Part shown: positions 20,246 to 62,891 of the stretch, piece by piece
Layout: each line of letters begins with the position of its first letter
Numbering within the stretch: position 1 is the first letter of the stretch
From: Octopus vulgaris
Taxonomy: Eukaryota
DNA: 64,000 nucleotides
NCBI GenBank assembly: GCA_951406725.2
Contig: OX597815.1
Span: forward strand, 74,214,001-74,278,000
Direction: 5' to 3'
Program-made: the position numbers and the translations under genes
Notes under the pieces: generated by a model
Databases searched by the model: none
Told to the model about the DNA's origin: nothing
What the model saw: the letters and a program-made list of their open reading frames with translations, nothing else

Positions 20246-20292
20246 TTGGACATTGTTCTGATTAGAAAATCTTTTGATGAAATCTCTATGAG
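20246..20292 (+). CDS. Candidate 47-nt exon (phase 0 to 2), LDIVLIRKSFDEISM; ATG at 20288 could be a start
   Basis: Acceptor tttttgctttgttttgtag| (with UGC), donor GAG|gttagg. Frame 0 is open and ends in phase 2, matching the 33-nt exon. Confidence 0.45.
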
Positions 20293-21295
20293 GTTAGGTT
20301 GACCACAAAGTTATAACAATTCTTATTCAGATATTCATAAAGTGCATCCATGCATGTAGAGAAGACTGATTGTTAAAAAAGTTATGACATTCTCTGTTTA
20401 GTCATTCTGTCATTAGACTTTCAAATCTAATGAATTGGTCTTTGTTTTGAGCTAAATGTGTACACACACACACATACATGCATACACACAAACACTGGAC
20501 TCACAAGAAATAATATGATTCAGTTTTTAAATATTTATATTTAGTGATTGTAACTTGGAAATTAGAACCAAAAGACAACCAGCCAACAACTATTATGAAA
20601 GCTTGGTGGACTTATTTCATTGTTGCTTTGATATTAGTATTAAGCACATGACATGCGGCTATGGGATAGATCTGTTTCTACTATTATCCTGTAAAAAGCA
20701 TTAAATCTAAAATTCAGACCATAAACTGTGCTACGTTCTGTGTTTATTTTCTTGCAAAAATAGCTTTAGAATTTGGGCAAATAACAAAAACTACTTAAAT
20801 AAGAATGAAATGAAATTCGTTGATATTTGCTACCTTTGATAATTTGTTTTGAGATTTGTTGTCCAAATGATATGCAGTCTGACAAATCTAAATTACATCA
20901 GCATGGAAAAAAAAACAACATTGGCATTAAAATAACAATGATGATGATTGCAGTGGCATTGATAATCAGCATCGTCCCACATGTTCTAGTGTCAGTATTC
21001 ATTCAATTCTTGGGAACTTCAGTTTTTAAAAGAAATAATGCAATATATATGAGGTTCTGTAGACAAGAGAGTTTGATATTTCAAGAGCAGAAATAAACCA
21101 AGGGAATCTTTATTTACAATAGCTTGATTAGGTCTTAAGGAAATTAGATAAGTAGAAAAATTACAGAGAAAATGAGAGACTGTTGTATAGGCTGGTCTAT
21201 AGATTTATTCTACCAATATTATTATTTTGATTACTAATGGAAATTCAGTTGAAAAAGTAGATGGCATTAAAATAAACTGGAAAAACAATACCCTG

Positions 21296-21347
21296 AGTGG
21301 GGTCAGTAAGCCAATAATAAACACACAGTGGTTTTATTTCACTTCTT

Positions 21348-21401
<54 letters not shown>

Positions 21402-21669
21402 GTCAACTAATTAGCCATTTAACCAATTAGCTAATTGATTGTTTGATTAATTGCTTAGTCAATTAGCTAGGTTTCTCAAAGGGCATGTAATTGATGAGGT
21501 TGCAAATGGTGGTGCAAGGACTTTGATAAACCTGATTGATTGATTGACCAAATGATTAATCGAAGAATTGATTAGTTAATTGTTTAAATGGTTAATGAAT
21601 TGACAAATAAAAATAAAGAAGTGAAATAGAACCAGTGCATGTGTTTATTATTAGCATAATGACTCTCTT
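21296..21669. repeat. Fold-back (long inverted repeat) element with an (ATT)n expansion in the left arm
   Basis: 21309-21349 pairs with 21612-21655, and 21401-21481 pairs with 21521-21607. The loop is about 39 nt. Confidence 0.75.
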
Positions 21670-21937
21670 GAAATATAACACCTGTTTCAACATGAATTCA
21701 TATTAAGAATCTTGCAAATCAAATACCAGAACAGAATTTTCTCATTTAACTTAGAAAATAGGGTTAAAAATACTAAGCCCTACTTTGAAATAGATTTGGT
21801 TGATAAATTTGAAAGTTTAGAAGTATCTGTAATTTATGGAAATTTTTCTCTGAACTATTGTTTATAAGTTTTGAAACTATGGCAGTGAATACTATTTTAC
21901 ATCTGTGTGTACGTATGTATTTTCATATGTCATCAAG

Positions 21938-22318
21938 TGTAAGCATAGCGGTGTGGTTAAGAAGCTTGCTTTGCAACTATGTGGTTTTGGGTTCAGTCCC
22001 ATTGTGTGATACCTTGAGCAAGTGTCTTCTACTGTAACCTTGGGCTGACCAAAGCCTTGTGAGTGAATTTTGTAGATAGAAACTGTGTGGAAGCCTGTCG
22101 TGTGTGTGTGTGTATGTGTGTGTTTGTGCTGCCACTGCTTGACAACTGGTGTTAGTTTATGTCCCCATAATGTAGTAGTTTGGTGAAAGAGACCAATTGA
22201 ATAAGTATCACACTTAAAAAGAAACAAGTACTGGAGTTGATTTGTTCAACTAAACACTCCAAGGTGGTGCTCCAGTATGGCTGCAGTCCAATGACTACAT
22301 CAAGTAAAAGATAAAAAA
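21938..22318 (+). mobile_element. SINE family A with the alternative tail (...ggtggtgctccagtatggctgcagtc...aagtaaaagataaaa)
   Basis: Collinear with copies at 27965-28335, 40288-40740 and 42320-42700. Confidence 0.72.

Positions 22319-26151: not shown

Positions 26152-26154
<3 letters not shown>

Positions 26155-26199
<45 letters not shown>
26155..26199. repeat. (AT)n microsatellite
   Basis: Direct reading. Others at about 28710-28740, 29873-29903, 58876-58920 and 59606-59640. Confidence 0.9.
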
Positions 26200-26200
<1 letters not shown>

Positions 26201-28707: not shown

Positions 28708-28742
<35 letters not shown>

Positions 28743-29869: not shown

Positions 29870-29907
<38 letters not shown>

Positions 29908-31705: not shown

Positions 31706-31738
31706 GATTCCTTGTGTATTACATAACTGCCGTATAAG
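31706..31738 (+). CDS. Candidate 33-nt microexon (phase 2 to 2), encoding (R)IPCVLHNCRI
   Basis: Acceptor ttgttttaatttcttacag|, donor AAG|gttagt. Only one of three frames is open. It lies in a SINE-free stretch with TGCATG (31895-31900) and TACTAAC (31913-31919) downstream. Confidence 0.55.
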
Positions 31739-32359
31739 GTTAGTGGGGAATGTTACCCATGCTATAGAAATGTGTGCTTTTTTCTGAATATCTTTCTACT
31801 GTTGTTTGCTTGCTATTGGTGATCTTAAACCTTTCAGTTGAATGCTGCTGTTACTAAGGTCAATAATGGATTTTCTAGACACAATTTTCCAGTCTGCATG
31901 GATTTTTAGTTTTACTAACATTTAGCATTGCTAATATTTTCTGTTTGACTTAAGCTGCAATCTTATATACTATTTTATTGAGAATCTTTCTGGCTGTGCA
32001 TTTATACTTTATTGATATATAATTTGCTTTTCCTATTTCCATCAGCTCTCTGCTACTCTGTATTGTTAAGCATACAGTATATGTTTAATATAAGCCAAAA
32101 GGATTTTCTTCTTTCTAACATTTTTTTTGCTTCAGCTTTCTGATCGATAAAAGAAATGTCACTTAAACATTTTTGCAATGGACCTTTTTAAAGGAAAAAA
32201 TAACCATTAAAGTCTTGTGTGCTTTAATATGTATCATTGTTATATTTGTTATGCCATCTATTAGTGTTAGAAAGATAATAATTTTATTCATGGATATGAA
32301 GTGACTGAATGAGTCAGAGTGCAGGTTTTTTTTTTTTTGAATGAGAAATGTTTGTAATT

Positions 32360-35800: not shown

Positions 35801-36267
35801 GAGATAAAAAAAAATTGCAGAATTAAATTACCTCCATTTCTCTTGAGTTCCTAGCAAATACTGCTAGGTTTTTGTTTATTTTCTCCAACTGAAAGAGAAA
35901 TAAGTTGAAAAATTTTGCATATGTCATTTAGTACATTGTTCCTTAGTTTATTTATTCTAAGAATAACATTTAATTAGATAGATTCCAATGTGGATTATAT
36001 GATTACGAGAAATCTCTCTTGCATGAAAACACGCAAAATGTGGTGATCTGGCAAAACTGTTAGCATGCCTGCAAAATGCTTAGTGGCATTTCATGTCTTT
36101 CTATTCTGAGTTCAAATTTTGCTGAGGCTGACTTTATCCTTCATCCTTTCAGGATCGATTAAGTAAGTACCAGTCAAGTTCTAGGGTCAATGTAATTGAC
36201 TCACACTTCCTTTCAGAAATTGCTGGCCCTGTACCAAAATTTAAAGCTATTATGTGCATGCATGCAT

Positions 36268-36307
<40 letters not shown>

Positions 36308-42700: not shown

Positions 42701-43098
42701 TACCTACACGAAACCTTCATTCGACCTTATTTTACACACGTGTAAACCGAGATATATATATGTCAGTATGTATGAATCTATATTGAATAGAGAGATAGAA
42801 ATAAACTGAAAATACAAATAGAGATAGCTACTTGAAAACCTTTTTTAACTCTCCAGAATGCTTTTGTTGTCAGAAAACTAGTTTCCTCTATATTAATTTT
42901 GCTAAGTGCTATAGTAGCTAGTAGCATGCCTCCACTTGTTAACGAGATGCATACTCTTGTAAGACGGTGGGAGGAAAAGGGAGAGCGAGAGAGAAAGAAG
43001 AAGAACAACAAAAATTGATGAATGTATTTCTTGAAATTTATATCATTGTCTGAAATCATCCCTCCATTTTCAAATCCTCTTTCTCTTCTTTGCTTCAG

Positions 43099-43120
43099 CT
43101 TATTCAATCAGCCAACTTGC
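43099..43120 (+). CDS. Candidate 22-nt microexon (phase 2 to 0), encoding (S)LFNQPTC
   Basis: Long pyrimidine tract cctctttctcttctttgcttcag| containing UGC, and a perfect donor |gtaagt at 43121. Reads c tta ttc aat cag cca act tgc and joins exon 62696 in frame. Confidence 0.6.
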
Positions 43121-43320
43121 GTAAGTGGATAAATTCTAGCTAGGGATCTATGATTCACCACTACTGGTCACAAACTACTGACACAGTAAATAGCCAATCA
43201 GAAACAGTTATCAGCTGTCAGCTTGTTTCATAGCAAATTATTGATGTGTTAAAATCTCGAAGTATTGAAAGTAAATAAATAAATAAACCCATTCTCGGGT
43301 TCGCTTTTCTGCTTTTTTCT
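43110..43320 (+). promoter_or_regulatory. Candidate internal promoter/enhancer
   Basis: AGCCAATCAG (NF-Y consensus) at 43192-43201, CAGCTG E-box at 43212-43217, TTGCGTAA at 43117-43124, inside a SINE-free, locally CpG-richer stretch (about 42710-44400). Confidence 0.35.
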
Positions 43321-44678: not shown

Positions 44679-44714
44679 TTTTGACATTTCAAACACAAGT
44701 CCTTCATCAGAAAA
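44679..44714 (-). ncRNA. Minimal type I hammerhead-ribozyme-like motif
   Basis: Minus strand: tttt-CTGATGA-a-ggac(ttgt)gttt-GAAAT-GTC-aaaa. Intact CUGAUGA, GAAA and GUC; stem II pairs via G-U. Confidence 0.55.
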
Positions 44715-45082
44715 ATAAAAGAATGAGAAAAGATGATTGAATAAGAAAAAACTTAGGGACTAGATAGGAATGTATTTCTATAGGGCATGTATGGGAAGTT
44801 ACACACACACACTCCTACTCAGTCAAGGACACTAGTTTTGTGAGTTACGTGCCAACCTTGCTAGTGTAACTGCCATGAAATAAAGTACCTCGTTCACTCT
44901 GTAAAGTGGTTGGTATTTGAAAGGGCATTCACCTGTAGATTAGGTCATTCATCTGTTGCTATGTTGAGGAACTAATTTCAAAGGTTTGATTGATCACATT
45001 AACTCTGGCACTTATTTTGTTGGTTTCTAAGCATAACATTAGGATGTGACCATGAGAAAATGTCAAATGCATGCAAGGTCAA

Positions 45083-45182
45083 ACTATACACTCTTTGAAC
45101 ATGAACCATACACTCATCCTGAACATGAATCATGCATTCTTTTTGAACATGAACTGTACACTCTTTTTGAACATTAACTGGT
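45083..45182 (+). repeat. About 24-bp tandem repeat, 4 copies
   Basis: Four units of approximately tgaacatgaac..tacactcttttt. Confidence 0.75.
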
Positions 45183-45194
45183 ACTCCATTGGTC

Positions 45195-45712
45195 ACAACA
45201 ATGAGAGTTCCAGTTGATCTGATCAATGGAACAGCCTGCTTGTGAAATTAACAGGCAGCTGGTTGAGCACCCCACAGACACATATACCCTTTTTAGTGTT
45301 TGCATTATTCTGCCAAAATTAATGCTTTTTTTATCCACATTGTTTTGAACTAATCATGCATTATCTTGTAGCTATGAGATTTTGATGAGGTAGCTGTTAA
45401 TTTTTAAAACGATATTGTAGGGTTGGTGTGAGAGACCAGATATGGCCAGTTTAAACATAAAATAAGCAGAATACTTTTGGCCGGATATGGCCGGTTTAAA
45501 TGCTAAAGGGTTAATATAGTTTTCCAGGAGATTCAGCAAGACACAGAATGTGATTAGGCTGGCCCTTTGAAATCCTGATACTAATCATTTTTGCCAGCCG
45601 AGTGGACTGAAACAATATGAAGTACCTTACCCATGTACACTACCTGCCACCAGGAATTGAACTCGTGATTATAAGATTGTGAGCACCCTAACCACTGAAC
45701 CTTGCATCTTCT
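45195..45712 (-). mobile_element. Older copy of the 8308-type SINE, split by a MITE
   Basis: Shares ggagattcagc..gacacaga.tgtga..aggctggccctttgaaat with 8573-8620. Confidence 0.6.
45287..45514. mobile_element. piggyBac-type MITE, family 2, inserted within a SINE
   Basis: ccctttttagtgtt ... aatgctaaagggTTAA. Related copies at about 13124-13338 (reverse) and 56880-57103. Confidence 0.65.
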
Positions 45713-47965
45713 TTCGAACATTAATGTGCAAACTATTGACTGCTGTGGAATGTTTACATTTTTAAAGAAGTTGCATTCAACTAAGATGAATGGATGCTGG
45801 CTCATTGAATAAAAGCTTAAATATGATGCCGCCCATCACTGGTGCTGAATTGTGAGCTTGGAATAGACATTTAGGATAACAGAAATATTAGGAACTAACT
45901 GCAATTAGATACAAGAGTTTATAGAATTAACAGATTCCATCATGCATTTTCACACTCAAGCCAGTGCTAGCCATAAATAGATATTGGATTTTTCAAATGT
46001 TCATAATCTCTTGTGGCTTTGCCAGTGAAGTCCAGTGAAGCAATATGTCTGACTCTGTCTGACTGCTGTGTATATAGAGTTAAGTAAACTTTTTGAAGGT
46101 CACAAGTCAGAAGTGGCAACCAGATACAAATTTAAGATTTTGTATCTTTATCTTTTACTAGTTGGAATGCAACCATGCTGGGGCACTGCCTTAAAGGGTA
46201 CAGTTGAACAAATTGACCCCAATACTTATTGTTAAGTCTGGTGATATTCTGTTGATCTCTTTCAAGCAATTGTGGGAGGACAAAGACAATGAACACACAC
46301 ATATTTATATCCTGGGATTCTTCACAGTTTCCATTTATGAAATTCATTAAGAAAGCTTCAGTGTGCCTGGAGCTTTGGAAGAAGACAATTGTCCAAAGTG
46401 CCATGCAGTGAAACTGAACCTAGAACCACGTGGGTCAGATAGAAGTCTGAAGTTGGAAAATTTGTATGTTAGATGTTTGAAGTTTATTTTAATTTTTTTA
46501 TTATCTATGTTAACTTGTGACTAGGAAGAAAATGAGTCAAATAGCTATGAGTTATAAATTTTATCAATAATATTTGTCTGTATATTAAGGACTAGTAACT
46601 TGTAAATGGGCAAATTAAGGTTTTGGACTTGCTAATTGAATGTTTAGTTTGGCACCAAAGGTGGTCAGGAAAATTTGGAGGGAGATGTAGAATTTAATTT
46701 CAAATAGTTTAGATGAAAGGTCTTTGTTGATTCTTTTGGATTTGGCGTTAATATTTTATTTGTCTCTTTTCCCTCATTTATTTGTTAGACAATCAGACTG
46801 AGTTACTAAATTTGGAATTTTGTGTCTTGTATTAATTACATTTAACTTCATACTAATACCATTATTTGAAGTAATTACCTGTCTGGTATATACACTAGCT
46901 TTATGAGACTGATTGTTTTATTATTATTATTTCTATTTGATTTTGTTTTTCAATACAGAAAGGAACTCATCACTCACTGGCAATACTTTTAATTAGTATA
47001 TTTTGAAGATTTGGGAGGGAGAAAAAAATTCTGTTTTCTTTATATAACCTTGTCATTTGATGTCATTTATTACACGGAACAGATCAATCATGTAATTGCT
47101 AGACATTTTCGTTTTTAATTAGTGTATCTCTTGTTTGCTATTCCCTCTTCATTTAACAATGATGAAAGCCTAAGAAATAACCCAATCTTGTCTTTGTTGA
47201 GCATTTATATCATCATCATCTTCATAGTTTTTATGTCTATTTTATTTTCATGCTTGTATGGGTTGGATAATCTTTTCTAATGCAGCTTCTTAACCATGCT
47301 TGTGTCCATCCTTTCTTCCTTTAGGCATTCTAGAAGAATTCTTTTCATCGATTCACTTTGTTATATTTACTGCAAAAATGGTCAAGTTTTGTCCAGGCAT
47401 GTGCAAGACCATAATCTTTTTTCCTTTGTGTATATTCTGCTTAAATATTTGTTTCTGCAATTATAGCCTGGAACGATAATTGGATCCAGTTACTTTAATG
47501 AAAAAACAATTTTGATGAGAAATCTTTTAAAATTTTCTCTTTCCCTTATGTTTCTGGAATAAAATTAAATATCACTGTTGCAGTTGATATTCACTTTCAG
47601 AAATTGAACTATCCAACTGTACATCCAACACTTAGTTATGCTTGTTGCTGTTACCACTTTTTCTTTTAAAACTCTTAGAAATTCATAGTTGTTACTATTG
47701 AATGTGAAGCTAGTAGCTGGTATCTATTTGTTTCAAGTATAAAAGATTATATAAAATAACAATGTTTATCTTGTGAAATCATGTTATCACTATTATAATA
47801 ATGAGATTTAAGTCAATATTCTTATTTAAATATAGAAACACTAATTATGGGTGCTGTTGCATGGGTTGGTAGTCTCAGACCATGAAGACTTAGGTTGGTA
47901 TTGGGCAAGCTGATAATGAATGGTTTAATTAATTATAGTAAAGCAAGTGGGATGAAGTTATTTGC

Positions 47966-48175
47966 TTAACTCTTTTGACACCAATCCACCCCTAGTTCTT
48001 TGTTAGTCTTCCTCTTTAAAGAGCTTTAAATTAAATCCTTCCACCAAAATTTCATGTTAATTTAATGTTCCAAACACTAGTTTAATAGTGAATTATTTTA
48101 TAAATTCTTCCTTATTTTCAAAATCAACTGAAACAAAAGCTGTCTATTTCAACAGAACTATAACAAAAGGGTTAA
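47966..48175. mobile_element. piggyBac-type MITE, family 1 (opposite orientation)
   Basis: ttaactcttttgac ... taacaaaagggttaa. Confidence 0.65.
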
Positions 48176-48651
48176 CTTTTCCTAACCAGAATGGTGCTAT
48201 CAATGAGGACCCCCATATTGACTTACCAAGATAGAATGTACTGGCAAAGAGTAATTGTTTTGGCCATGAACACACACACAGCATTGATAACACAGGGCAC
48301 TGATGACAGTATATGAAGAGTTGACGTTTTTGTTTGTAGATTCTTTCCCTATTGTCTCATTCATCAGCAATTCCTTTGATTTATTTAAAGTCTCTTTATT
48401 CTCTAACTCTGTTTGGACAATAGATAAAGTTACTGTACTTTAGGCTTGTAGGTCATGAATTCTTATCTTGCTGTAGGTATTGTACTGGATTCTTAATCAA
48501 AACACTCTACTCTGCACCAACCCCCATGGCACAGAGATTGCACAGCCAATTAATTCTACCAAATTTATATGACTATCTTTGTGGAAATATATCTTATTAT
48601 GAATAAGTGCAAAGAGGATAAATGTATTTCACTCTTCTGTATTATATTACA

Positions 48652-49062
48652 CTAGCAGCATAGCCCGGGTATGTAATAGCCCCTAGTAGGCAACGACTAA
48701 TCCCAATCTATTTCTTTCCCTCTAGGGAACGAAGACGCATGTGTAGGTTGCAATGTCTTCTCTTCACTCGAATACGTCTGTGTATACGATGTTCCTAGCT
48801 GTCTCCCGATTGCAAGTTGCAAAAACTACAACAGAAAATGTGTCGCATATAAAAAGCTTAGATTCTCGACCCCCATGTCGAATTTATCGATTTTTTTCAG
48901 AACTGGGGGAACTTTTCAAAATTTTCGCTGCGTTAGTTTTGAATTATGACATTGGGCTATGTGTGTGTCAAGTTTCATCAGAATCGGTTGAAAGCCGTGG
49001 TCAGGGTGAGGGTACAACCTGACAGACACACAGACAGACAAACTGCCGTTTATATATAGAGA
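48652..49062 (-). mobile_element. Non-autonomous Helitron-like element (Lep1/HINE-like architecture)
   Basis: On the - strand it reads A|TCTCTATATATAAAC...(tgtc)n...CCCGGGCTATGCTGCTAG|T: 5' TC, 3' CTAG, insertion between A and T, no TSD, GC-rich palindrome near the 3' end. Much richer in CpG than its flanks. Confidence 0.75.
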
Positions 49063-50519
49063 TGATTAAATATAATTTATATTAATTTTCGATATATCTT
49101 TGCATGATGAAGACAAGGTTTTTGAAAAATCATAATTTCATTCAACATGCTGCAGTCCTTTTGGAAATTATTAAATGTATTAGTCTATAAGTATTGATGT
49201 TTATTTCAAAACACCACCACCATTTCTCAATATATTCTAAAATTTGTAATGTAAGATCTCTTCCTTCTCTGTCTCACTAATTCTACCCCCTCACTCCCTC
49301 TCTTTCCCTCTCTCTCCCATGCACACACACACAAATCTTAACTGTGAGAGGTAAGCTTTTGAAATAATGTCATAATTAAAATTGCTATTCTGTCCTTGAA
49401 AATGGAGGTCAGTTTAATCTAATAATTAAATAGTAGCTGGTATATAGACCCACCACCGAACATATCACCGTTGCTCATTTAAAGACAAATTATTAGCCTG
49501 ATGGTATTTTTTCCTTCTTTTTCTATTTCTTTTCTATCTATTTAAAAATTTCACAATAGACCCAGTGGAAATGAGCTCTCATATGATGGTAGTTTAACAA
49601 GAGAAATTTCAATATGAATTGTTGCATTGGTTTTTAATTCAACCACTGAAAAGAAAGAAAAAAAAATGATTGAAAGGAATGAATGAAATAGCAGGATTTA
49701 TTTTGACCAATTTAAACAATCAGAACTAATTTCTTTATTAGCTTTTATTTGTTGGTGTTATTCCAATAGAAAAACATGAGATGTTAGACTGGTTTTATTA
49801 TTATTATTATTTAAAAATTTTCTCTCTTCTCAATGGCTTCAAATATTGGAGAAAGTTGTTTAATCTCTTATCCGAAAAAGCTTCAAGTTACCTTGTAATT
49901 TTAAAAAAATGGTGATGTTGGATTCAGTTTCTTGGTGTATTGTATGAATTTAGGTTATGTAATGCTAACCTTTTGCCATTAATATATTAAATGTATAAAT
50001 ATAGTTACAAACATCTAAAGGTCAAAGAGGAAAATATTTTGCTGAACTTTGTATTAGCATATTGTACCTTTGACTACCATTTCCATAAATATATTTGAGT
50101 TTTTGGCATACTAAACCTATAACCTGGTTTTCATTCTGAAAGTTAAACTACTTCACTTTTGATGTTTATGCTCATGGTAAAAATATGAATGTCATCATTT
50201 TGTATATCTCCATCACCTGTAAATATATCTAAAGCCTCATGTCTATGTATTGTAAAAAAAAGAATTAAAAAAAAAAAGATTTTGTAATAATTTGAACCAA
50301 AAATATTACGCTACAAAGTACCTGAGCCATGATTTTACATTTACAACACACACATAACACCACTATCATTTATTGTCCACTTTTCCTTGCTCGCATGGGT
50401 TGGATGCAGTTTATTGAAGCAAATTGTCTATGGCTGGATGCCCTTCCTATTGGTAACCCTAATGTGTTTCCAGGCATGGACATATTTACACAATGGTTGG
50501 CAAGGCAAATTTTTGTGTG

Positions 50520-50870
50520 AAACAATTGTCCACAGAAGTCACATCTGATGGTTGGTAGAGGCCCTGGTTAGAATTGGTGGGTTTTTTGTTGAATCCATTT
50601 GCTGTTTTCATTTCTTGACAATATTCTTCAAAATGTTCTACACTTATTTTAATGACATGATGCCACATTGTTCTGTCTTCTGTGTGTTGCTCCCAAAATT
50701 TAGGGTCCATGCTGGTGCTCTTCATTGTTCATTTCAGTTGGGGTAGACATGTAATTGCTTGCCAGTACTGAGTTTGCTGTAGAGGATTTGACACGGCAAT
50801 CTGGTGCTATTGATGCAATGGACATGACCTGCCCATTCAAGGTGATGTTTGAGGGTGATGGCCTCGGTTC
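50520..50870 (-). mobile_element. RTE (BovB-like) LINE C-terminal fragment
   Basis: ORF-track peptides LEWAGHVHCINSTRLPCQILYSKLSTGK and WEQHTEDRTMWHHVIK match RTE C-terminal motifs. Confidence 0.75.
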
Positions 50871-51599
50871 TATTGGTTTTGGCCCCTTCAAAGACTGCAG
50901 GGGACCTTTTTCTTTCCTGTTTTGCTTGTAGTATGAAAAATGCACCGAATACACACTGTGAAGAGGTTGGTGTTAGGAAGGGTGTCCAGCTGTAGAAACC
51001 ATGCAAAAGCTGATATTAAACCTCAACACAGTTCAGAGGCTTGTTGGATTCTGTCAAACCCATGCCAGTATGGAAAACAGATATTAAATGATTATGATGG
51101 TAATATTAAGAAAACTTCATTTAATGCATACTGAGTATATATATATGTGTAAGCCAGCAGCACAGCATTGTTCTTAAAAGGCACTGACATGTGTAACCAG
51201 CAGTGATACTGATAATTTATATATTTTTAAATATGGTTTAAAAATGTAATTCAATATAGTTCTCATCTTATAAAAGATCAATTGTCAGTCATGGCTTCAT
51301 CTGGTTACCTATCATCATTAATTAATATTAATTCAATTTTAATTAAATTTAGCTATAATATTTTGACTTAAGACCACACTGTTTCCTCTGTCTAAACATG
51401 TGCAACTGTTTATTTTGTAGTTTTAAATTACTTCCCATCTTTTTCTTTTCCTTGTCTGTGTTACTAATCTTTATAGCTATTTCACTAGATTTCATAGCTA
51501 TTGATGTAGCATCCACCACTTTCTGATTTTGGGGAATGAAAATTGTTTTCAGGGGATATTTTTGTTTTTTGAAGTCTATTTTATTATTTCATTATCATT

Positions 51600-52022
51600 C
51601 CTCCTCATCATCATTTAACATCCACTTTTCCATGCTGCATAGATCAGATGGAATTTGTTGAGGCAGATCTACTACAGTTGAATACTCGTCCCATTGCCAA
51701 TTCCCTCCCCACATCCAAGCAAAGTAATATTTCCCAATGGCCAGATACGTTTTCCATGGCAGACTGAAAATGAACAATATAGCTTGTATGACAGTGTTGT
51801 TCATTTAGTCATAACATGATGTCAAAAACAAAGGCACACACACACACGCACACATGCGCGTGTGTGATAGGCTTCTTTCAGTTTCCCTCCACCAGATCCA
51901 CTCACAAGGGCTTTGGTTAGTCTGAGGCTAAAGTAGAAGACACTTAACGAAAAGTATCATACAGTGGGACTGATCCTGAGACCACATGGTTGGGCAAAAA
52001 GCTTCTTAACCATACAGCCACA
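51600..52022 (-). mobile_element. SINE family A with RTE-like tail
   Basis: Reverse complement of the 52505-52905 type copy. Confidence 0.7.
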
Positions 52023-52504
52023 CCTTAAGTTTTACTATTACACTATAGTTTCTTTAGAAGATTATAAGGTGGCACTTATTCACATATCTTGTTTCATTCA
52101 GTAAATGCATTCAACTATAGTGTTTTACATTCTCATAAACTTATTAAACTTCCTGTAGAATAAATTTAAGAAAGACATGGTAAAATATACAATGACTAGT
52201 GTGAAGTACACATTACAAATATGATAGTTTAGCAACATGATTGTGTTTCTGAGTCTATTCTCTTGCTCTCTTTGTCTGTTCTAAGAAGCTAAGATGTTAT
52301 CTTGAAAAAGTTTGCTATCATGTTTTCCTTTATAGCTTTTATATCTAACATGTGTTTGAGTTATGCTGAAAATTAATCTATCTCTCTCTCTTTCTCTACT
52401 TTATTACATTTACTCTTCTTATTGTTGTCAGTTTGGGGAGGTGGATGATATATCATGATGAAGATGATGATAGTGATGATGCATGAAGTTCTTGTCATCA
52501 CACA

Positions 52505-52905
52505 GGCATGGGCATGGCTGTGTGGTTGAGAAGCCTGCTTTGTAACCATGTAATCATGGGTTCAGTCTTTCTATGTGTTACCTCGGGCAAGTGTCATCTA
52601 CTATAGCCCTGGGTCAACCAGAGCCCTGTGAATGGATTTGGTAAATGGAAACTGAAAGAAGCTTGCTGTGTGTGTGTGTACTCTTTCTTGACATTGTATG
52701 ATGGTTGTGAATGAGCATCAGTGTCATACAAGCAATGTAGTTTGTTTCCAATCTTCCATGAAAATATGTCAAACCATGGGGAAATATTACCTTACTTGGA
52801 AACAGGTGAATGTGGGTGACAGGAAGGGTATCTGGTTGTAGAAAATCTGCCTCAACAAATTCCATCTTACCCATGCATGCCTAGAAAAGTGGACCTTAAA
52901 TGACA
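52505..52905 (+). mobile_element. SINE family A with RTE-like tail
   Basis: Head ggcatggctgtgtggttgagaagc, tail ...catgcatgcctagaaaagtggaccttaaatgac. Confidence 0.7.
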
Positions 52906-54554
52906 ACACTTTACTCTAGTTTAAAATGATAATAATATTTGAACTTTTATTTAGCCATTTGCTTTTAAATGTTTGAAATTTGCTAATGTGTAAAAGTCTT
53001 TGGATTAAGCATAGAATTTCATCTTAGTCACTCATTTCACCTATTTTTAATTAATTGGGAAGTTATTAAATAAATGAATCTTATTTCATTTCTACGATAC
53101 CATTAACTTTACTTGTCGTTGGTGGGAATTTTGACTGTCTTTAAATTTGCTCCTGTTACTTCACATTTTTAAGAATATCTCATCAAAGTCACAACCTGTT
53201 GGGTAAAAACCAGCTCTGGAATACAAGAATATTTTTCATGTCATTTTTGTATAATTATTCCTTTCTACTACAGGCATATAGCCTGAAATTTTGAGGGAGT
53301 CAATTATATCAGCCCAGTGCTTGACTAGTACTTATTTTATTGACCCCAAAAAGCTAAAAGGCAAAGTTGACCTTGGTGAAATTTGAACTTAGATCATAAA
53401 GACAGATGAAAGGCTGCTAAACATTTTGCCTGGCTGGCTAATGTTCACTACTTTATATACAAGTCATCAACACAAGCAGTGGATGTAGAAATTATATAAT
53501 TATTAATATATAATCATATGATATATATCGTATATAATTATTAATATATTACACTCTCAGAGTTGTTGGTATTAGGAAGGGTATCCAGCTGTAGAAACCT
53601 TGCCAAATCAGATTGGAGCTTGGTGCAACCTCCTGGCTTGCCAGGCCTCAGTCAAACTGTCCAACCCATGTCAGCATGGAAAGCGGACGTTAAACAACAA
53701 TGATGATGATATATATAGTAGACAGGCATAGTTGTGTGATTAAGAAGCATGCTTTACACTCATGGTTTCAGTTTGTCCTACTGAATCCTATTGAGTGGCA
53801 TCTTGAGCTGCTGTCTTCTATAGCCCTGGGTTGACCAAAGCCTTGTAAGTGGATTTGGTAATGGGAATTGAAAGAAATGTATCTATGTTTTATATGCATA
53901 TGTGAGTGACATCATTTGATGGTTGTAAACAAGTGCCATTTATTTCCAGTATTCTGCCTACAAATTGTATTGGATTCATGCAAGTATGAAAAAGTGGATG
54001 TTAAAAGAAATATAAGAGAGAAATGATGATGACCATCATCATCATTTAACATCTGCTTTCCATGTTGGCATGGGTTGGATGGCTTGACAGGAGCTGGTAA
54101 GGCTAGGGGCCACACCAGGTCCCATCATCTGTTTTGGTTTGGTTTTTACAACCGGACGTACTTCATAACACCAGCTACTTTACAGAGTGCACTGGGTGAC
54201 TTTATACGTAGAACCATCACCAGTGCTTTTTATGTTGTACTACAATGAGTATGAAGCAGAAGAAATGAGTGGACATTTGGAACTGATGGAATTTCAGTTT
54301 TATGAAAACTTAGCTTTTTGGTGAAATGTTTGTCATTAGTATTGCAGAGTTAAGTACCAATCTGCCACAGACTCTCTTTGATTCTCATACAAATCTTGTT
54401 GTTTTAAAATGTTTAAATCAAAGAACTTCCATTATAATTTTGTATAAAAGCATAGTATTGTTATATTCCAAATCTCATATTGATAACAAAAAATTTATTT
54501 TATTTAATTAGTAGAAATAATTACTCTCAAAATCAACTAAAATGCAATGACAAT

Positions 54555-54574
54555 GTATTTCATTGCAGGTATGG
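54555..54574 (+). other. Candidate recursive splice site (3'SS fused to 5'SS)
   Basis: gtatttcattgcag|gtatgg, AG|GT at 54567-54570, with ACTAA at about 54536 upstream; not inside a recognisable SINE. Confidence 0.3.
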
Positions 54575-55139
54575 TCCCTTCTCATGTCACAAAATTAACA
54601 TCATTGAAATAAAAATTATCTCTGTTCTTTATGGTGTGTTTTTTTTTTTTGTTTTGGGGTGCTGGGTGAGAAACGAAATTGTAATTTTCCCTTAAAACTC
54701 CAAAGCTTCATTTGTATTCTGAAAATATTATGCTCAATTTCATATTTTCACTGTGGTAACCTGCAGTGTTTGTATGAATAAAAGATAGGGCTGATGCTTA
54801 AAATTGCAAAAGCTAGACACTTGTTCTATAAAGACACAATGAATCAGAGTTTAATATGTATTAATGAGCAGTAACTGATCTGATTGATTCTTAAAATAAA
54901 GGAATATAAATTCTAGAGTAGCATATGGTCAATATATTGCACCTAATGCATAGGGCAGCTGCAGATTAGAGCAGAGGGGTATATTTTAATTTTGGAGGGA
55001 AAAAAACTGGAGAAACCCCATCAATGTATCTGAAGTTTGAAAATCAGTTGTGGGGGTAAATGAAGCTTTAATATAAACAAGGTTAGAAATAATGAGAGAA
55101 GCAATGTCAATAAGAAGTATATAATAAATAAAATAGGTG

Positions 55140-55510
55140 TGTCTTTTTATGTAAGAAGCTTGCTTCCCAACTATGTGGTCTCTGGTTTAGTCCCACTGTA
55201 CAATCCCTTGGGCAATCATCTTCTATATCCTTAGGCTGACCAAAGCCTTGCAAATGGATTTTGTAGACTGAAACTGAAGAAACCCTCTGTATGTGTGTAT
55301 ATATGGAAATGAGCATCATTGTCTTACAGGTGATGTTATTCATTTCCAATCTTCTATGAAAATATGTCTGACCATGGGGGAAATATTACCTTGCTTGGAA
55401 ATAGGTGAGGGTTGATGACAGGAAGGGCATGTGACTATAAAAAGCTGTCTCAGCAAATACCATGTGACCCATGCAAGCATAGAAAAGTGGGCATTAAATG
55501 ATGATGATAA
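55140..55510 (+). mobile_element. SINE family A with RTE-like tail
   Basis: Same architecture as 14360 and 52505. Confidence 0.68.
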
Positions 55511-56879
55511 ATTCACATTGCTTGAAATATAAAAGGAGTAAGGACAGAAATTATTTTAAGACATAATGCAGATACTAATATCCCTATGGAGAAATATCAA
55601 ATGGAATACACATAACTGTCTCACAAGTAGCAGAAAAGATCAATCAATTAAACAATTATTCTATGTTGTTAACAGTAACCTCTTAAGTTATTAATGGGCT
55701 TCAGAATAGGGCTTTATTATTCTGATATTTCTTTCAGTCAAATAGCTTATTTAGCATGAGTATAAACAGACTGTGTTTACAAAACAGTGTCCAAATTACT
55801 CTTTTCTATCAATTTATTTATGAAGGCTAGATAAAATAGGTCTATACTTGAAAAAAAAAAAAATAATAATATTGTTGTGTTGAGGAGTTGTACTCACTAT
55901 AGAAGATTTTCAGGCATGAAGTTTTATTGTTTTGGTAAAGCAATTCAATCAGTGATATATAACAGACATGGGAAACTACATTGTGTCTTGTTGTTAAATG
56001 AGTCTTTTCATTACAGAAACATTTTTTTTCCTTTGTATTTCATTCTTTTATCACAAATATAATAAAAATAGTAAAGGCATTCACATATCCGATCTCTCTA
56101 TTAACCTTTAGAGCACATATACATGTGAGAAAGCTTTGTATAGTTTTCTAACCCATTTGATAAAATTGTTTATAAAGATCTAGCATAAGTTGTTTTTAAG
56201 ATTTCTTTCTGCAACAAAATCCCTCCTGTATTTATTTATTAAACCTTTAGAAAACTTGACTCTATCTCCTCACCACTTAGATATGAGAAATATAGTTCAG
56301 CTTTCATTTGTTTGTGTTTCTTGTATTAAAACAGAAAAATTAAAAGTAGTAAAGAGAAAGTAGGCCACAGTATATTCTGAGTTACACCCGTTACACCCGC
56401 GTCTACTTTTCTAATCTTGTATTCTCATTTGAAAGTACATTCTTTGTTACTTGCTTTCTTTCTCTTTAATGTTTTGTGAACAACAAATTTGCTTGGAAAT
56501 AATTCTTTATTTATCTTGATTTCACCTGATGATTTCTTGGCAACTATCTTTCTTTCTGAGTTCCCTCTTGTTTGCTAATCTCAAACATGTTTGGTTGATA
56601 TTGATTTTTTTTGTCTTCTTTTGCTGATAATATTATATGATTGTATTTACCATAGTCTTCACTGATAACCTCTACATCAATTTGCTGTAAAGCTTAAGTT
56701 TAACAAGTTATGTCAGTGTCAAAGTGTTATTTGTCAGGTTTTTTTTTCCTATTTCTTAGTTAGAATAGGCAGTACCTCAGATTTTTTTTTTGCAGAACCT
56801 CTAAGATTGGTGGGAAGAAGGGAGAGAGGGAAGTTTTTTTATCTGGGAGACCTGGCCCGAATGCCTGCAACAAAGTGGA

Positions 56880-57103
56880 CCCTTTAGTATTCTGATTACA
56901 CTATCAAATGTAATGTTTATTTATTCAAATTGTGTTGAATTAATTCTGCATTATCTTGTAGTTTTGAGATTTTGATGATGTGAGTGTTTGTTTTTAGAAT
57001 GACATTGTAGGGTAGGTATGAGAGGCAGGATATGGTCAGTTTGAACATAAAACGGGTAGAATATTTGGGCTCTATATGTCCAGTTTAAATGCTAAATGGT
57101 TAA
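56880..57103. mobile_element. piggyBac-type MITE, family 2
   Basis: ccctttagtattc ... aatgctaaatggttaa; collinear with 45287-45514. Confidence 0.6.
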
Positions 57104-57369
57104 AGGTACCCAAGGTAACCTGTTATCCCCTGTATCTTATTCTGTTTTTGTCTCATGCATGCAAGTTTTAAGAATAAGTTTTTTTCTCTCTCATGGATGC
57201 AGACACAGTGCTATTGTTAAGAAGTTTGCTTTGCATTCAAATTGTTTCAGTTCTAATGCATAAGTCTTTTGGCAAGTGACTTTTACTATAACCTTGGATT
57301 GATGAAAGCCTTATGAATGAAATTTGGGAGATAGAAATAGTGCCAAAGGCAGCTATATATATATATATA

Positions 57370-57905
57370 TCTTGAGGGAAATGTTGACATAAGAGGCATC
57401 AGATGTGATGTGCAAGAGAGACGACCTTGCTGGTATGGTCATGTGTTGCATATGGATAAGGACGTTGCATATGAAGAAGTGCTGATCTCTAACTGTGGAG
57501 GGAACCCGTGGAAGAGGTAGATCAGGAAGACATGAGACGAGATGGTGATGCATGATCTTCAAATATTGAGCCTCATGGAAGCAATGACAATTGACTGAGA
57601 CCTTTGGCAATATGCCGTACTTGACAAGACTCGTCAAGCCAAGTGAAATCGTAGTTGTAGTCGATGCCGGTGTCACTTAATTGCATCCATACTGTGGCAC
57701 ATAAAAGCAGCTGTGCTGGTGGTACATAAAAAGCACCTATTACACTCTTGGAGTGGTTGGCATTAGGAAGGGTATCCAGCCAAAGCAACCATGCCAAATC
57801 AGACTGGAACTTGGCGCAGCTCTCCAATGTACTGTTCCTGTTAAACTGTCTAACCCATACCAGCTTGGAAAGCAGCTGCTAAATGATATTGATGATGATG
57901 ATATA
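57370..57905 (+). mobile_element. RTE LINE 3' end with 3' UTR and (GAT)n tail
   Basis: tggtatggtcatgtg (WYGHV) and VEGTRGRGR, followed by the same 3' tail as at 9290-9620, ending gatgatgatgat. Confidence 0.75.
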
Positions 57906-58007
57906 TGATATATATGATATAAAAGTGGCACTTGCAAGTGAGTATGACCAAGTAGCATAAACTATGCTTTTGCTAATTGTTTTAGGAGCTTATATGAATT
58001 GTTAGAA

Positions 58008-58870
58008 AGGATCACAAAAGTATAGCTCACAAAATTACTGCAGAGCTTAATGACTACCCCGAGAACCCAGTTTCCACAAAACTGTTCGATGAGAGCTGCA
58101 CAAAGCCGGATTTCATGGGAGGGCTGCAATCAGAAAACCACTACTTCCAAAAACAAACATTGCAAAGTGTTTAGAGTGGAGTAAAAACCTACAGAATTGG
58201 TCCCTAGAGCAGTGGAAGAATATTATTTTCTCAGATGAGTCATCCTTTACTTTATTTCTGACCACCGGCCGAGTATACGTGTGGAGACAGACAAAAGAAG
58301 CATTTGACCCAGACTGTCTTCTTCCAACTGTTAAACATGGAGGAGCTGTGATGATCGGGGGTGGGTGGAGGGTGGCTATATCTTGGAAATCCCTTCATGG
58401 CAGAATTAATAGTCAAGACTAAGCATTTTATCTGATCAAATTCATCCTGTAGTTGTGGAACTGTTTCCCTCGGCAGAATTAATAGTCAAGACTAAGCATT
58501 TTATCTGATCAAATTCATCCTGTAGTTGTGGAACTGTTTCCCGACGGAAACAGAATCTTTCAGGATGATAATGCACCAATTCACGCAGTTGTTACTGAAT
58601 GGCACGAGGTACATTCTATTGAAGTTGAACATCTTATCTGGCCAGCACAGTCCTCAAATCTCAATATTATTGAACATTTATGGTGCATTTTAGAAAAACA
58701 AGTAAATAGTCAATATCCTCCACCATTATTACTACAAGAATTGGAGACTGTTTTAGCTGAAGAATACCATACCTTATAGAATTCAAGCCGTAATTACTGC
58801 CAAAGTTGGTCCTACCATATATTAAAATAAATTTAAAATTTTAAGGTATTTTCATTATTTTGTCCAACCC

Positions 58871-58873
<3 letters not shown>
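58008..58873 (+). mobile_element. Tc1-family DNA transposon, 5'-truncated, decayed transposase with right TIR
   Basis: Motifs RELHKAGFHGRAAIRKPL, IFSDESSF, PTVKHGG, FQDDNAPIH, WPAQSSNLNIIEHLW. Right end ...ttattttgtccaacccctg (CAGGGGTTGGACAAAATAA on the - strand) abuts a (TA)n tract. Confidence 0.88.
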
Positions 58874-58935
<62 letters not shown>

Positions 58936-58989
58936 TACCCCCTCTTCTCCTCACTACACCACACGACTTTACACATCACATCATATATG

Positions 58990-59300
58990 ATGTGCCATAC
59001 TAATACATACACCAACTAATACATACTAATACATACACCAACCCTATACATACACACGTCCAGACCCCTCATACGCACTTATACTCTCTCATACACACAC
59101 ACACACACACACACTTATACATACTAATACGTACTAATACATACTAATACATACACCAACCCCATACATACGCCTGTCCAGACCTATCCTACGCACTAAT
59201 ACCCTCTCATACACACACACACACACACACCCTTATACATACTAATACATACACCAACCCTATACATACACACGTCCAGACCCCTCCTACGCACTAATAG
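58990..59300 (+). repeat. CA-rich minisatellite, about 3 units of 105-130 bp
   Basis: Repeating catactaatacatacaccaaccctatacatacacacgtccagacccctc...acgcact.ata..ctctcatacacac. Confidence 0.8.
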
Positions 59301-59603
59301 GTGGTCATTCAACCCTATTATCAACCCTATTATCTCCCCTTATTTCGCTCTCGCGTCTCATGTTTGATCTTTGACTTCTGGCCGAAATCAGATCGCCATG
59401 TTGATTCGTTAGTTACTGCACGCATTTTTTTTCTCTCCTTCTTTCTGTGTTTTTTTTCTCTCTGTGTATCTTTCTGTTGAAGAGCATAGGCTCGAAACGT
59501 TAAAGACTTGTTTTATTTATATTTCCTGAGCGCCATACTAATACAATTATTTGTTTGTTTTCCACCTGCCTTCGTCTTTTGTCTATTTTCATAAAGCTTC
59601 CCG

Positions 59604-59606
<3 letters not shown>
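59300..59606 (+). mobile_element. Penelope-like pLTR / non-autonomous element related to 27240-27380
   Basis: Shares tgaagagc..gctcgaaa.gt.aaa.act...ctgagc..ca.ac.a.taca..tt with the 27 kb copy; ends at a (TA)n tract. Confidence 0.6.
59469..59506 (+). ncRNA. Minimal type I hammerhead-ribozyme-like motif (A6U variant)
   Basis: tcttt-CTGTTGA-a-gagc(atag)gctc-GAAAC-GTT-aaaga. Stem I tcttt/aaaga, stem II gagc/gctc, palindromic ACGT in place of stem III. Confidence 0.6.
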
Positions 59607-59662
<56 letters not shown>

Positions 59663-60644
59663 TATATATGCACACACACATATGGATATGCATGCGTTTT
59701 TGCACACACAGCTATACACCAATGATAAGAAGAAAATGGGAAACTGACAGAATCATTAGCATGCTGAGCAAAATGCTTAGCATTTCTTCTAGCTCTTTTT
59801 CTTCTGAGTTAAAATTCTTGAGGTGGACTTTCTTTCATCCCTCAGGGGTTGATAAAATACCAGTCAAGTAGTGTGGTTGATGCAATCATCTTACCCCCCT
59901 GCCATCAAAATTGCTCGTCTTGAGCCCTGGAGTTGACCAGTGTAATGTTTGGAGTGAATGTTTTGATTTTGGTCATTCATACACCACAGAATCGTGGTAA
60001 CTGATCTTATGAGTACTAAGGCTCAAGAAAAAAAAATGTTTTAGGATAGACATCCAGCTATAGAAACCATGCCAAAGCAAACATTAGAGCATTACACAGC
60101 CCTGAAACCCATTGGACCATGTCAAATCATTCATCCCATACTAGCTTGGCAGATAGACATTGATAGATGATGATGATGCTTCATCTACGATATATGTTTC
60201 CATGAACCAAAGAAAAACTTATGAAACTTTTAAATAATCATTGCTACTTGAAAATACTTTTATTTACTGTGTTTACCTGTCTTCTGATTAAGACATCTCA
60301 TATTTCTCTTCAAAATCATAATTTTTGTGTTATCTGTTTTATGATTTTTATAATCACTGCCTTATCAATAGAGATTTTTGTTTGTATTTAGTTGTCAGTC
60401 ATAACTTTCTACCTTTCTTTAGTCACCTAGAATTTGCCAAACAGAAATATCAACATGTGGAGAGCTAATGAATCGAAAATGCTAATTGGTTATTGAAGCT
60501 CTGACCTTTAGGCTATAAGTATTCAAAATGTTAAATATAAATGAATATTTCTTAGTTATTTAGATATTTTTGTTATATATTTATTTCTTTAAGATTCATA
60601 TTTATATTTATTTTGCTTCTTACTGTTTAAGACTGATAATTTCT

Positions 60645-61061
60645 TTAACCCTTTTGTTACCATATTTCTATTGAAAAACACTTAATTTGTTTCAATATCG
60701 AAAATAATGAAGAATTTCGTAAAATAACTTATTGTTAAGATGGAAGATTTTAATTTAGATCAATTTAAAATAGGAAATTTGTGTTATAGAACCAGAGGCA
60801 GTCTCAGGCAGATTAATATTATTTTCAAATTTTGGCTCAAGGCCAGCAATTTTGAGGGAGGGTTAAGTCAATTACATTGTCTCCCCTCCCCACAGTTCAC
60901 CTGGTACTTATTTTATCAAAAGGATGAAAGACAAACCCAGCCTTGGTGGAATTTGAACTCAGAACATGAAGATGGATGAAATGCCATTAAGCATTTCATC
61001 TGGCATGCTAACAATTCTGCCAGATTGCTGCCTTTAGGCGGGTTAATATTAGAAGGATTAA
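60645..61061. mobile_element. piggyBac-type MITE, family 1, with a SINE inserted near its end (about 60822-61035)
   Basis: ttaacccttttgttacc start and agaaggattaa end. ttaatatt is duplicated around the SINE. Confidence 0.6.
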
Positions 61062-62208
61062 AGTTATCATTAGACTTTGGAAAATATTATACACGCATTG
61101 CAATTTTCTGTAATGTTACTACCATTTGAAATTTTCTAATCTTGAACTTGAAAACTCTTTGTAAATAGTAGCATGAGTCAGTTTAGTAGGCTTTTTGTTG
61201 AAAATTTTATTTTTCTTAAACACAGATACTTGTTCTTAGATTTTTTTAGATAGCTGAAATGTAATAATTCAATTTGTATGCTTCTTTCTCTCTCTCCCTT
61301 TTTTCTTTTGTAATGTTTAACATATTGTGGTTTGCTAGAAAATATATTTTTTATTTTCACTGGTAATTTTAGTATACACTTTTATAGATATTTTGTTCAT
61401 GATGTTACATTATATTGGTTTTCTTTGAAGGTTGTAACAGTTCAGTTGAGAACATTAAATCTGAATTGCTAATATGAAAAATATCTCAAGTTTATGACTT
61501 TATCTTGAATCCTTTGAAATTTCAGAATGAATTATTGTTTCTCGTAGAACTGTATAAAATTAAAAAGAACTCAATTTCTAAAATTTTTGTAAATTGCACT
61601 TGTCTACACAAAATTTGTATTTCTGGAAAAATAAATTTTTGACTTGTGTGATGTCCATTATAGCTCATGTAAGATAAGTCAATCAATTTATAAGGAATGA
61701 AGAAATCATTTTTAAAGTGTTACTTTTTTGTTTGTACTGGTTTATTTGGTCATCCTGGTAGCAACCTGTGACAGCAAGCATATATAAAAATGGCCAGAAT
61801 AACTAAAACATACCAACAACATGAAGGTACTATAGTGAAGTTTTGATTTTGTAGTTTAACGTCTTGGATGTGATTCAGGAATTTTGAGGGTGATTAAAGT
61901 TAACTTTTCATCAGCATTGCACCCAGTTTCACTGGGCCCTAAAAATGCTCTTGTAGCTAATGCATACAGGCCATAGAGGAGCACTGGTCTCTAGAAATGT
62001 GTGTCACAGGTCCACTGGTGTTTGGACATGCCTTGATTGATACCATGTAAGCTTAGTTCTTTTAAAGTTGTTTGCAGAAGTAGTTTTCATTTAATCAACT
62101 GCTGGAAATCAATTAACTGCTGCAAACAGAAATAATTTAACTTATATAAATAGCTTCCAGTTACTTATATGGAAATTTTAACACAAAAAGAAGGGTTAAA
62201 AACACTCT

Positions 62209-62438
62209 TTACTTTTTTGATATCAATCTGTCCGAGTTTCTGACTTGGTTCCCTGATATATAGTTTCTGTTTGGAAGTGATCTCAAGTAAAACCTTAAAT
62301 CATAATTTCATTTTAAATTATGTTCCAAATACTAGCTTAATAATGATAAAGTTGTTATACTAATTTTTTCATTATTTTCAAAATTAATTAAAACAAAAAG
62401 CAGTGTATTTCAAAGAAATATGGTAACAAATGGGTTAA
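62209..62438. mobile_element. piggyBac-type MITE, family 1 (opposite orientation)
   Basis: Ends tggtaacaaatgggttaa; the body resembles the 47966 copy. Confidence 0.55.
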
Positions 62439-62695
62439 GGTCAATGACTTATGAGGATTTTCAAAGACGTTCTTGGAATGAACAATGCCATCAATCATGT
62501 AAAATATGTCATTCCATTCATTATTTTATGTCCAACCCATCCAGGAACATGAATGTTGAATGATGATGATATTAGTTTATTTTTTATGTCTTTACATCAT
62601 AAAATTTTGCTTCTTAAAAAATGCCAAATGATATAGTTTTGAAGAGATTTAGATTAAAATAGTTTTGTTCTAATATTTATTTATTTTTTTTTCAG

Positions 62696-62891
62696 ACCGA
62701 GGAGGAGGGTGTTAATGCCTGTATGGATAGGGTGCGGAAGCTGTTAAGCCCTGGAACCAAGAAGAAAACTGTTCCTCAAAACAGCAACAAGACCTTCGGA
62801 GTTCCTCTTGAAGAACTTGTTCGCCAGGCACCTGATGGGCTTAAAATTCCCCTCATTGTAAAGAAGATATGTGAACATATTGAAAACCATG
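62696..62891 (+). CDS. Coding exon of a RhoGAP-domain gene, FAM13A/FAM13B-like (start of the RhoGAP domain)
   Basis: Strong acceptor (ttattttttt ttcag|, AG at 62694-62695) and donor (CATG|gtaagg, GT at 62892). Open in phase 0: TEEEGVNAC-MDRVRKLLSPGTKKKTVPQNSNKTFGVPLEELVRQAPDGLKIPLIVKKICEHIENH-G. The FGVPLEEL...IPLIVKKICEHIE.HG pattern is the canonical RhoGAP N-terminal signature. Its position near the N-terminus resembles FAM13; orthology is inferred. Confidence 0.9.

Follow-up and report, generated by a model that had tools for sequence, protein, structure and literature searches.

Neural cassette exons that restore a reading frame and are coupled to nonsense-mediated decay (NMD) are known, of the PTBP2 exon 10 type, and the usual length limit for a microexon is 3–27 nt. 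According to excerpts of two studies, eMIC targets in fly and mammals have a UGC near the 3' splice site, an AG-free zone and a CU-rich tract (10.1101/2021.02.24.432780; 10.1101/2024.09.17.613571). An excerpt on leaders of the ATF4 and CDKN1A types describes one AUG with two outcomes: out of frame, it heads an overlapping upstream open reading frame (uORF); in frame, it begins an N-terminal extension (PMC13631847). In human FAM13A, a GTPase-activating protein (GAP) for RhoA, the long and short isoforms arise from different promoters and differ in the presence of the entire RhoGAP domain (PMC11376246, in excerpt), and human FAM13B is described as having no GAP activity (PMC10714175, in excerpt). 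Here we examine three short candidate exons, of 47, 33 and 22 nt, that lie upstream of a FAM13 coding exon in a 64-kb stretch of Octopus vulgaris contig OX597815.1 (the window). The 22-nt piece may act as a frame switch for a start codon carried by the 47-nt piece, and we put the probability of this isoform switch, taken as a whole, at about one in two.

In such a switch, octopus FAM13 would have its ancestral start in the 47-nt and 33-nt pieces, and the 22-nt one would be a mostly skipped cassette, its inclusion possibly enhanced in neurons. Inclusion would put the ATG at 20288 in frame and add 29 residues to the same RhoGAP domain, and skipping would leave it out of frame, with a short protein made by leaky scanning from the ATG at 62723, in the exon that begins at 62696 (exon 62696). 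The output would be a choice between a long and a short N-terminus on one RhoGAP rather than an on/off switch, and any loss of protein or NMD would be partial. The extension might also influence membrane targeting through a Cys, which is the weakest step. A stronger version, in which a neural, eMIC-controlled 22-nt microexon flips an ancestral FAM13 start between an overlapping uORF and a Cys-bearing extension, neurons obtain a RhoGAP with different targeting, and molluscs share the phase-2/phase-0 layout, seems to us rather doubtful.

With SRRM3/4 neural microexons, as those excerpts describe the eMIC class, the 22-nt piece shares its length, the UGC, a long AG-free zone and a CU-rich tract, and an SRRM_C domain is found in the octopus genome. 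Unlike them, it is 3n+1 nt long and separates a start codon from the gene body, its inclusion would restore a frame rather than add residues inside a domain, it has no branch-point consensus (YTRAY) within 60 nt of its acceptor, and its neural inclusion and eMIC dependence are only predicted. What sets it apart from leader splicing of the ATF4 and CDKN1A types is that a microexon would flip the frame. As in the PTBP2 exon 10 type, including an exon that is not 3n long would yield the full frame, but a downstream in-frame ATG can rescue the octopus skip form, from which a shorter protein, not loss, is expected. The gene resembles FAM13A and FAM13B in its RhoGAP domain, its FAM13 C-terminal family, its G-I-F-R motif and the long and short-start records found in many orthologues; unlike the human FAM13A isoforms, both octopus forms would keep the RhoGAP domain and differ by 29 aa. 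Among titles and the first lines of abstracts, nothing was found on these exons or on a microexon that sets a uORF/extension choice. In the main text, as excerpted, of an octopus-inclusive bioRxiv survey (10.64898/2026.09.05.749416) FAM13 is absent; its supplements, or splicing databases, may list the exons.

The octopus FAM13 locus

The original prediction identified the host gene as encoding a FAM13-like GAP, and this identification is supported. Exon 62696 is 100% identical to named Octopus FAM13A proteins, PF26116, the FAM13 C-terminal family, is precomputed on 8/8 matches, and the best-ranked matches are named FAM13A or FAM13B. The RhoGAP domain (PF00620, E 1e-43) covers residues 60–206 of P0013, and residues 1–798 of this protein map across 17 exons of the locus, nearly residue for residue. 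The G-I-F-R motif, the Arg of which we take to be the catalytic finger, is kept in the octopus RhoGAP domain, and GAP activity is predicted.

The octopus cluster contains 14 records, 5 of which begin at ATG 62723 and 8 with eight residues from another exon, the last being a fragment. That other exon, a 105-nt coding exon annotated 7.3 kb left of the window, provides an alternative in-frame N-terminus of 17 aa without use of any of the three pieces. As this exon is annotated, the whole finding sits inside an annotated 69.9-kb intron, and the pieces are absent from every fetched Octopus protein record, as expected in the original prediction, which held that gene predictors would probably miss them. 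The 105-nt exon also contains a 19-codon uORF, the stop of which overlaps the exon's ATG, an arrangement seen again in the mini-uORF at 20277. The first exon of FAM13 likely lies in a CpG-rich region at −90 to −75 kb.

The coordinates, splice ends, phases and both translations originally given for the three pieces and exon 62696 were correct, with AG before and GT after each of the four. Joined to exon 62696, the full chain forms the claimed open frame and adds 29 aa from ATG 20288. The claimed skip frame is also borne out: without the 22-nt piece, the open reading frame (ORF) from the same ATG is 29 aa long, with a stop at 62745–62747, past ATG 62723. Omitting the 33-nt piece alters neither the inclusion nor the skip outcome in the computed paths. 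An out-of-frame AUG with an ORF that runs past the main start, as in an overlapping uORF, is a feature of the computed skip paths only. The three pieces total 102 nt, so the frame is also kept with the upstream 105-nt exon, which would happen one time in three by chance alone. Each piece has a single match in the genome searched (G000), and no further match was found in 264 kb of the locus. All three had been called microexons; the 22-nt piece is under the 27-nt limit, but the 33-nt and 47-nt pieces exceed it. To judge from the sequence, the pieces likely carry an unannotated N-terminus of ancestral type within the long first intron of FAM13.

Table 1. Features of the octopus FAM13 5' region, numbered from the first position of the window (negative positions lie to its left)
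Feature	Position	Strand	Properties	Basis
Annotated upstream coding exon	−7328..−7224 (G000:C2:74206672-74206776; L002 1420-1524)		105 nt, phase-0 donor, ends TG	
Candidate exon, 47-nt piece	20246..20292	+	Phase 0 to 2, ends ATG-AG/GT, holds ATG 20288	
4-codon uORF	20277..20291	+	TGA overlaps ATG 20288	Sequence only
Candidate exon, 33-nt piece	31706..31738	+	Phase 2 to 2, frame-preserving, completes M-R-I-P	
Acceptor region of the 22-nt piece	43004..43098	+	93-nt AG-free zone, CU-rich pyrimidine tract, UGC at 43091-43093	
Candidate exon, 22-nt piece	43099..43120	+	Phase 2 to 0, predicted frame switch	
Exon 62696	62696..62891	+	Annotated Octopus FAM13 coding exon, phase-0 acceptor, ATG 62723, RhoGAP domain start	
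10-codon out-of-frame ORF	62715..62747	+	Overlaps ATG 62723, all isoforms; stop common to the skip-frame ORF from 20288	Sequence only

Splice signals and orthologous N-termini

Splice matrices were built from the gene's own 17 exons and applied to AG..GT pairs of 3–51 nt in the 69.9-kb intron. Among 12,020 such pairs, the 33-nt piece ranked first, the 22-nt piece 10th and the 47-nt piece 22nd by splice score. Pairs of at least 20.7 bits, the strength of the 33-nt piece, numbered 1, 1, 0 and 4 across target and control stretches of 70, 93, 87 and 264 kb. Splice signals alone are insufficient for the three pieces, which exceed chance only when the N-termini of orthologues are added. In the 162.7 kb upstream of exon 62696, the acceptor at 31706 was the sole one, among 983 at 3 bits or above, to be followed by x-[IV]-P (1/938 in the minus-strand control, at 3.9 bits). 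Over the same 162.7 kb, the donor at 20292 scored 7.6 bits and was the top of 37 plus-strand ATG-A[AG]/GT donors, and the minus-strand control contained 29, one scoring above it. We regard the 33-nt exon as very probably real, and the ATG donor at 20292 with nearly the same confidence. The donor of the 47-nt piece is well supported, and its acceptor is uncertain, with an alternative at 20042 that scores 7.8 versus 6.4 bits.

The chain in the window places 20 residues, beginning M-R-I-P, before exon 62696. In the FAM13 proteins of Mya (P0144), Dreissena (P0067) and Mercenaria (P0049), 20 residues precede the equivalent of this exon, and in Sinanodonta (P0047) there are 21; all four begin M-K-[IV]-P, with the borders of these extensions set via isoform break points or a conserved T, not bivalve DNA. 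Ticks, horseshoe crab and sea spider begin M-R-[KR]-P, and chelicerates usually have a Cys at position 6–7. When 211 N-termini were examined and 124 without an anchor or partial, 24 short and one duplicate were excluded, 62 distinct long N-termini were left, of which 27 begin M[KR] and 7 begin M[KR]xP. The equivalent of exon 62696 begins approximately 9–12 codons before the short start in molluscs. The read-through proteins P0126, P0175 and P0045 and an echinoderm-like genomic contig (L024) show a phase-0 acceptor before the short start. From this acceptor we conclude that coding sequence upstream of the exon-62696 equivalent is ancestral.

Residues 3–20 of the chain resemble the four bivalves at p=0.009 (5,760 random two-exon chains of equal length), the four having been picked after the likeness was seen. 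It is the 33-nt portion that carries the likeness (p=0.011, n=368, in a set chosen after inspection). Both long and short-start records are present in 7/10 mollusc clusters, and short-start records stand beside long ones in Tachypleus, Acanthaster and Dysidea. Such mixed records would fit a shared layout and could equally come from other promoters. An early Cys is found in 8/62 long orthologue N-termini and in none of the four closest bivalves, and the octopus extension has no Gly2; the lipidation of its Cys, raised in the original prediction, is speculative. A short hydrophobic-then-Cys motif was noticed near the FAM13 start in P0073, P0075, P0080, P0097, P0069, P0113, P0202, P0203 and P0213, the groups being echinoderms, sponge, brachiopod, vertebrate FAM13A and chelicerates, with bivalve extensions lacking it. 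This motif is possibly an old membrane-targeting signal.

With the ATG exon closing in phase 2 and exon 62696 opening in phase 0, the long form requires an insert of 3n+1 nt, which 33+22 nt (55 nt) supplies. For 31739–62695, 14 candidates of 3n+1 length are listed, and among those that are open and outside repeats the 22-nt piece is the best. The one candidate that scores higher, a 10-nt pair at 36153–36162 (rank 2 by splice score, 20 bits, phase 2 to 0), was rejected as it ends in a stop and is a repeat with 26 other matches in 264 kb; if spliced in, it would end the ORF from ATG 20288 with that stop. A second open 3n+1 candidate of 22 nt, at 32136–32157, has a near-identical acceptor end, including the UGC, and a poor donor (2.6 bits).

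The UGC claimed for the 22-nt and 47-nt acceptors is present at −8 and −15, respectively, and absent at the 33-nt acceptor, but UGC alone is common, with background rates of 19/210 acceptors within 10 nt and 39/210 within 25 nt. Among the gene's real acceptors, 1/17 has a UGC within 25 nt. The AG-free zone of the 22-nt piece, at 93 nt, compares with a median of 49 nt in the 17 real exons, three of which have longer ones, and the tract before the piece was judged CU-rich by eye. When a strict eMIC filter (AG-free zone of at least 40 nt, UGC, GTRAG donor), with thresholds set knowing the candidate, was applied to 264 kb, the 22-nt piece was the sole site (1 on the plus strand, 0 on the minus strand). 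A match to SRRM_C, the eMIC-type domain, at G000:C25:37317492-37317626 (L026) scores 33 bits against a Pfam cut-off of 27 and covers profile positions 14–55 of 67, a partial domain; this exon likely belongs to a Srrm234 orthologue. On length, UGC, AG-free zone, CU tract and the presence of a regulator in the genome, the 22-nt piece is a candidate member of the eMIC class by sequence. We favour its being a real exon, less firmly than for the two pieces before it, and eMIC control and a neural bias are possible.

RNA contigs, translation and alternative readings

Assembled contigs from four runs, guessed to be RNA and with tissue not recorded, were aligned to window positions 43000–62999 (likeness 88, share 1). 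Among the matches listed, contigs of 4/4 runs cover exon 62696 without mismatch and stop matching the genome no more than 2 nt from either exon end, from which we conclude that they are spliced. The alignments start at 62695 (X1) or 62694 (X13, X6 and X7), with 465, 596, 589 and 130 nt upstream, respectively. X1 fits a direct join to the 105-nt exon. X13, X6 and X7 suit an upstream exon with a [not C]AG end, which both the 33-nt and the 47-nt pieces have, and they are compatible with the skip junction without proving it; 26/121 strong upstream donors end in this way, so the contig ends do not single out an exon. The original prediction had named a constant join of exon 62696 to some other exon as evidence against it; the X1 contig fits such a join, to the annotated exon left of the window, and three contigs fit a [not C]AG end. 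An exon ending in C, such as the 22-nt piece, would give a start at 62696, which 0/4 listed contigs have, and the piece therefore does not adjoin exon 62696 in any of the four. Because contig assembly drops rare paths and the matches listed are a minority of all, the contigs are silent on minor or tissue-restricted inclusion. No junction read was found for the three pieces, in an alignment of 43000–62999 that was repeat-swamped and uninformative on junctions and with the 33-nt and 47-nt pieces outside it.

By splice strength alone the pieces are near background: pairs of at least 14 bits number 25 on the plus strand versus 23 on the minus strand, and pairs as strong as the 33-nt piece occur about once per 70 kb in controls. 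The missing junction reads and the ambiguity of the contig ends weigh against the isoform switch, as do the limits given above for the bivalve set and the strict filter, and the following. Compared with six other molluscs and with four distant N-termini, chain residues 3–20 gave p=0.72 and p=0.056, respectively, and the peptide of the 22-nt part resembles that of no orthologue (p=0.22–0.45, n=615). The 22-nt donor, at 3.3 bits, falls under all 17 real donors (minimum 4.0), and an eMIC filter with a looser donor is unspecific (3–36 sites on the plus strand, 0–26 on the minus strand). The extension is found in 0/13 Octopus records that include exon 62696 and in 0/13 other cephalopod-type N-termini (P0002, P0003 and 11 of 15 listed members of a 26-member cluster), unlike the oyster cluster, in which 14/15 listed members show the long form. 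For the proposed frame switch, the 22-nt piece is the best frame-restoring candidate, with eMIC-like intronic features, a weak donor and a peptide unlike those of orthologues. All three pieces are, we infer, likely used as exons, and the 22-nt one is likely left out by itself.

The alternative that survives best, and which we consider unlikely, is that the 47-nt donor and the 33-nt exon are real or relics, the 22-nt piece is a chance match or has decayed, and cephalopods have lost the long form, with ATG 20288 heading a uORF or unused. The lack of the extension in every fetched cephalopod record speaks for it, as do the weak donor of the 22-nt piece, its peptide at p=0.25, its rank of 10 at background level and its absence beside exon 62696 in 4/4 listed contigs. 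But the piece restores the exact 20-aa length of three bivalves, no other strict eMIC-like site occurs in 528 kb, and disuse should erode such features.

A little less probable still is that the three pieces are real and always used together in a minor long isoform, perhaps with its own promoter, in which case there would be no lone skipping of the 22-nt piece and no frame switch, and the contigs with an AG end would derive from other 5' untranslated region (UTR) exons. Good candidates ending [not C]AG do lie upstream, for example at −20397..−20302 (13.5+8.8 bits), and gastropod and mussel orthologues join several alternative N-termini at the same acceptor. Joint use sits poorly with the unequal splice sites of the pieces: for the 22-nt piece the donor is the weakest and the acceptor region resembles that of a cassette exon, whereas the 33-nt sites are of constitutive strength. 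The segments at −20397..−20302 and −23705..−23584 and the donor at −83143 (L003–L012) are strong, non-repeat exon or donor candidates in their own right and may be FAM13 5' UTR exons.

By the usual rules of start-codon context, ATG 20288 is weak, with T at −3 and A at +4. As this ATG is weak and overlapped by the 4-codon uORF, and as the ORF from ATG 62715 overlaps ATG 62723 in every isoform, skipping is expected to lead, by leaky scanning, to the short protein from ATG 62723, with repression or NMD at most partial. It is improbable, in our estimate, that skipping instead silences this transcript through the overlapping uORF or NMD, the microexon acting in neurons to switch on FAM13 protein from it. 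In favour of this reading, the skip frame runs across ATG 62723 and ends approximately 140 nt before the next junction, with many junctions beyond, and overlapping uORFs are described as able to block a main ORF (PMC13631847, in excerpt). But the weak ATG and the same overlap from ATG 62715 in all isoforms tell against it, and the contigs joined at an AG are the displayed path in 3/4 runs, which would be unexpected of a strongly degraded form. Of the repressive uORF in the original prediction, the overlap is real and strong repression is doubtful, the short form being the common cephalopod record.

A chance origin of the three AG..GT matches, in an intron of 70 kb, would fit splice scores near background and the missing junction reads (in the repeat-swamped alignment of 43000–62999 only), but is very unlikely, given that the top-ranked pair is also the sole decent acceptor with x-[IV]-P after it, is located 3' of the best ATG-AG donor, and forms a chain with the length of the orthologues.

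Surrounding sequence and significance

A CpG-rich patch at −13 to −11 kb was rejected as a promoter, being an inverted and tandem repeat. The array there (L011 ~7150–8900; window ~−12850..−11100) is CpG-rich, with units of approximately 500 nt in inverted and tandem order. At ~16500–19500 of the window, approximately 1 kb upstream of the 47-nt piece, there are broken ORFs (17378–17722 and 18839–19303, plus strand) with strong GC and AT skew. These resemble a decayed retrotransposon of the type without long terminal repeats, and Pfam returned no match to back that likeness. Tandem duplications of two copies each are present at 58399–58542 and 59015–59252, with periods of 73 and 118 nt. Rfam gave no match in the window, and a search for short proteins returned intron read-through products only. 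A metagenome scan returned three loci, one transcript-like, one genomic animal locus and one unrelated bacterial-like match, none of them cephalopod-like.

At minimum, the 5' gene model of octopus FAM13 is probably corrected by these pieces, and if they prove to be a relic or a minor isoform only, the result is an annotation fix. The recovered N-terminus is known in bivalves and chelicerates, and none of the fetched cephalopod records has it. Should the 22-nt piece be regulated in neurons, it would be a microexon that acts through the frame of a start codon, setting a uORF against an N-terminal extension, and not through the insertion of residues. If true, this frame-setting design could be searched for genome-wide, and the piece would be a concrete candidate for a cephalopod eMIC target. 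A neuron-specific N-terminus, if it exists, could matter for the site at which Rho is switched off.

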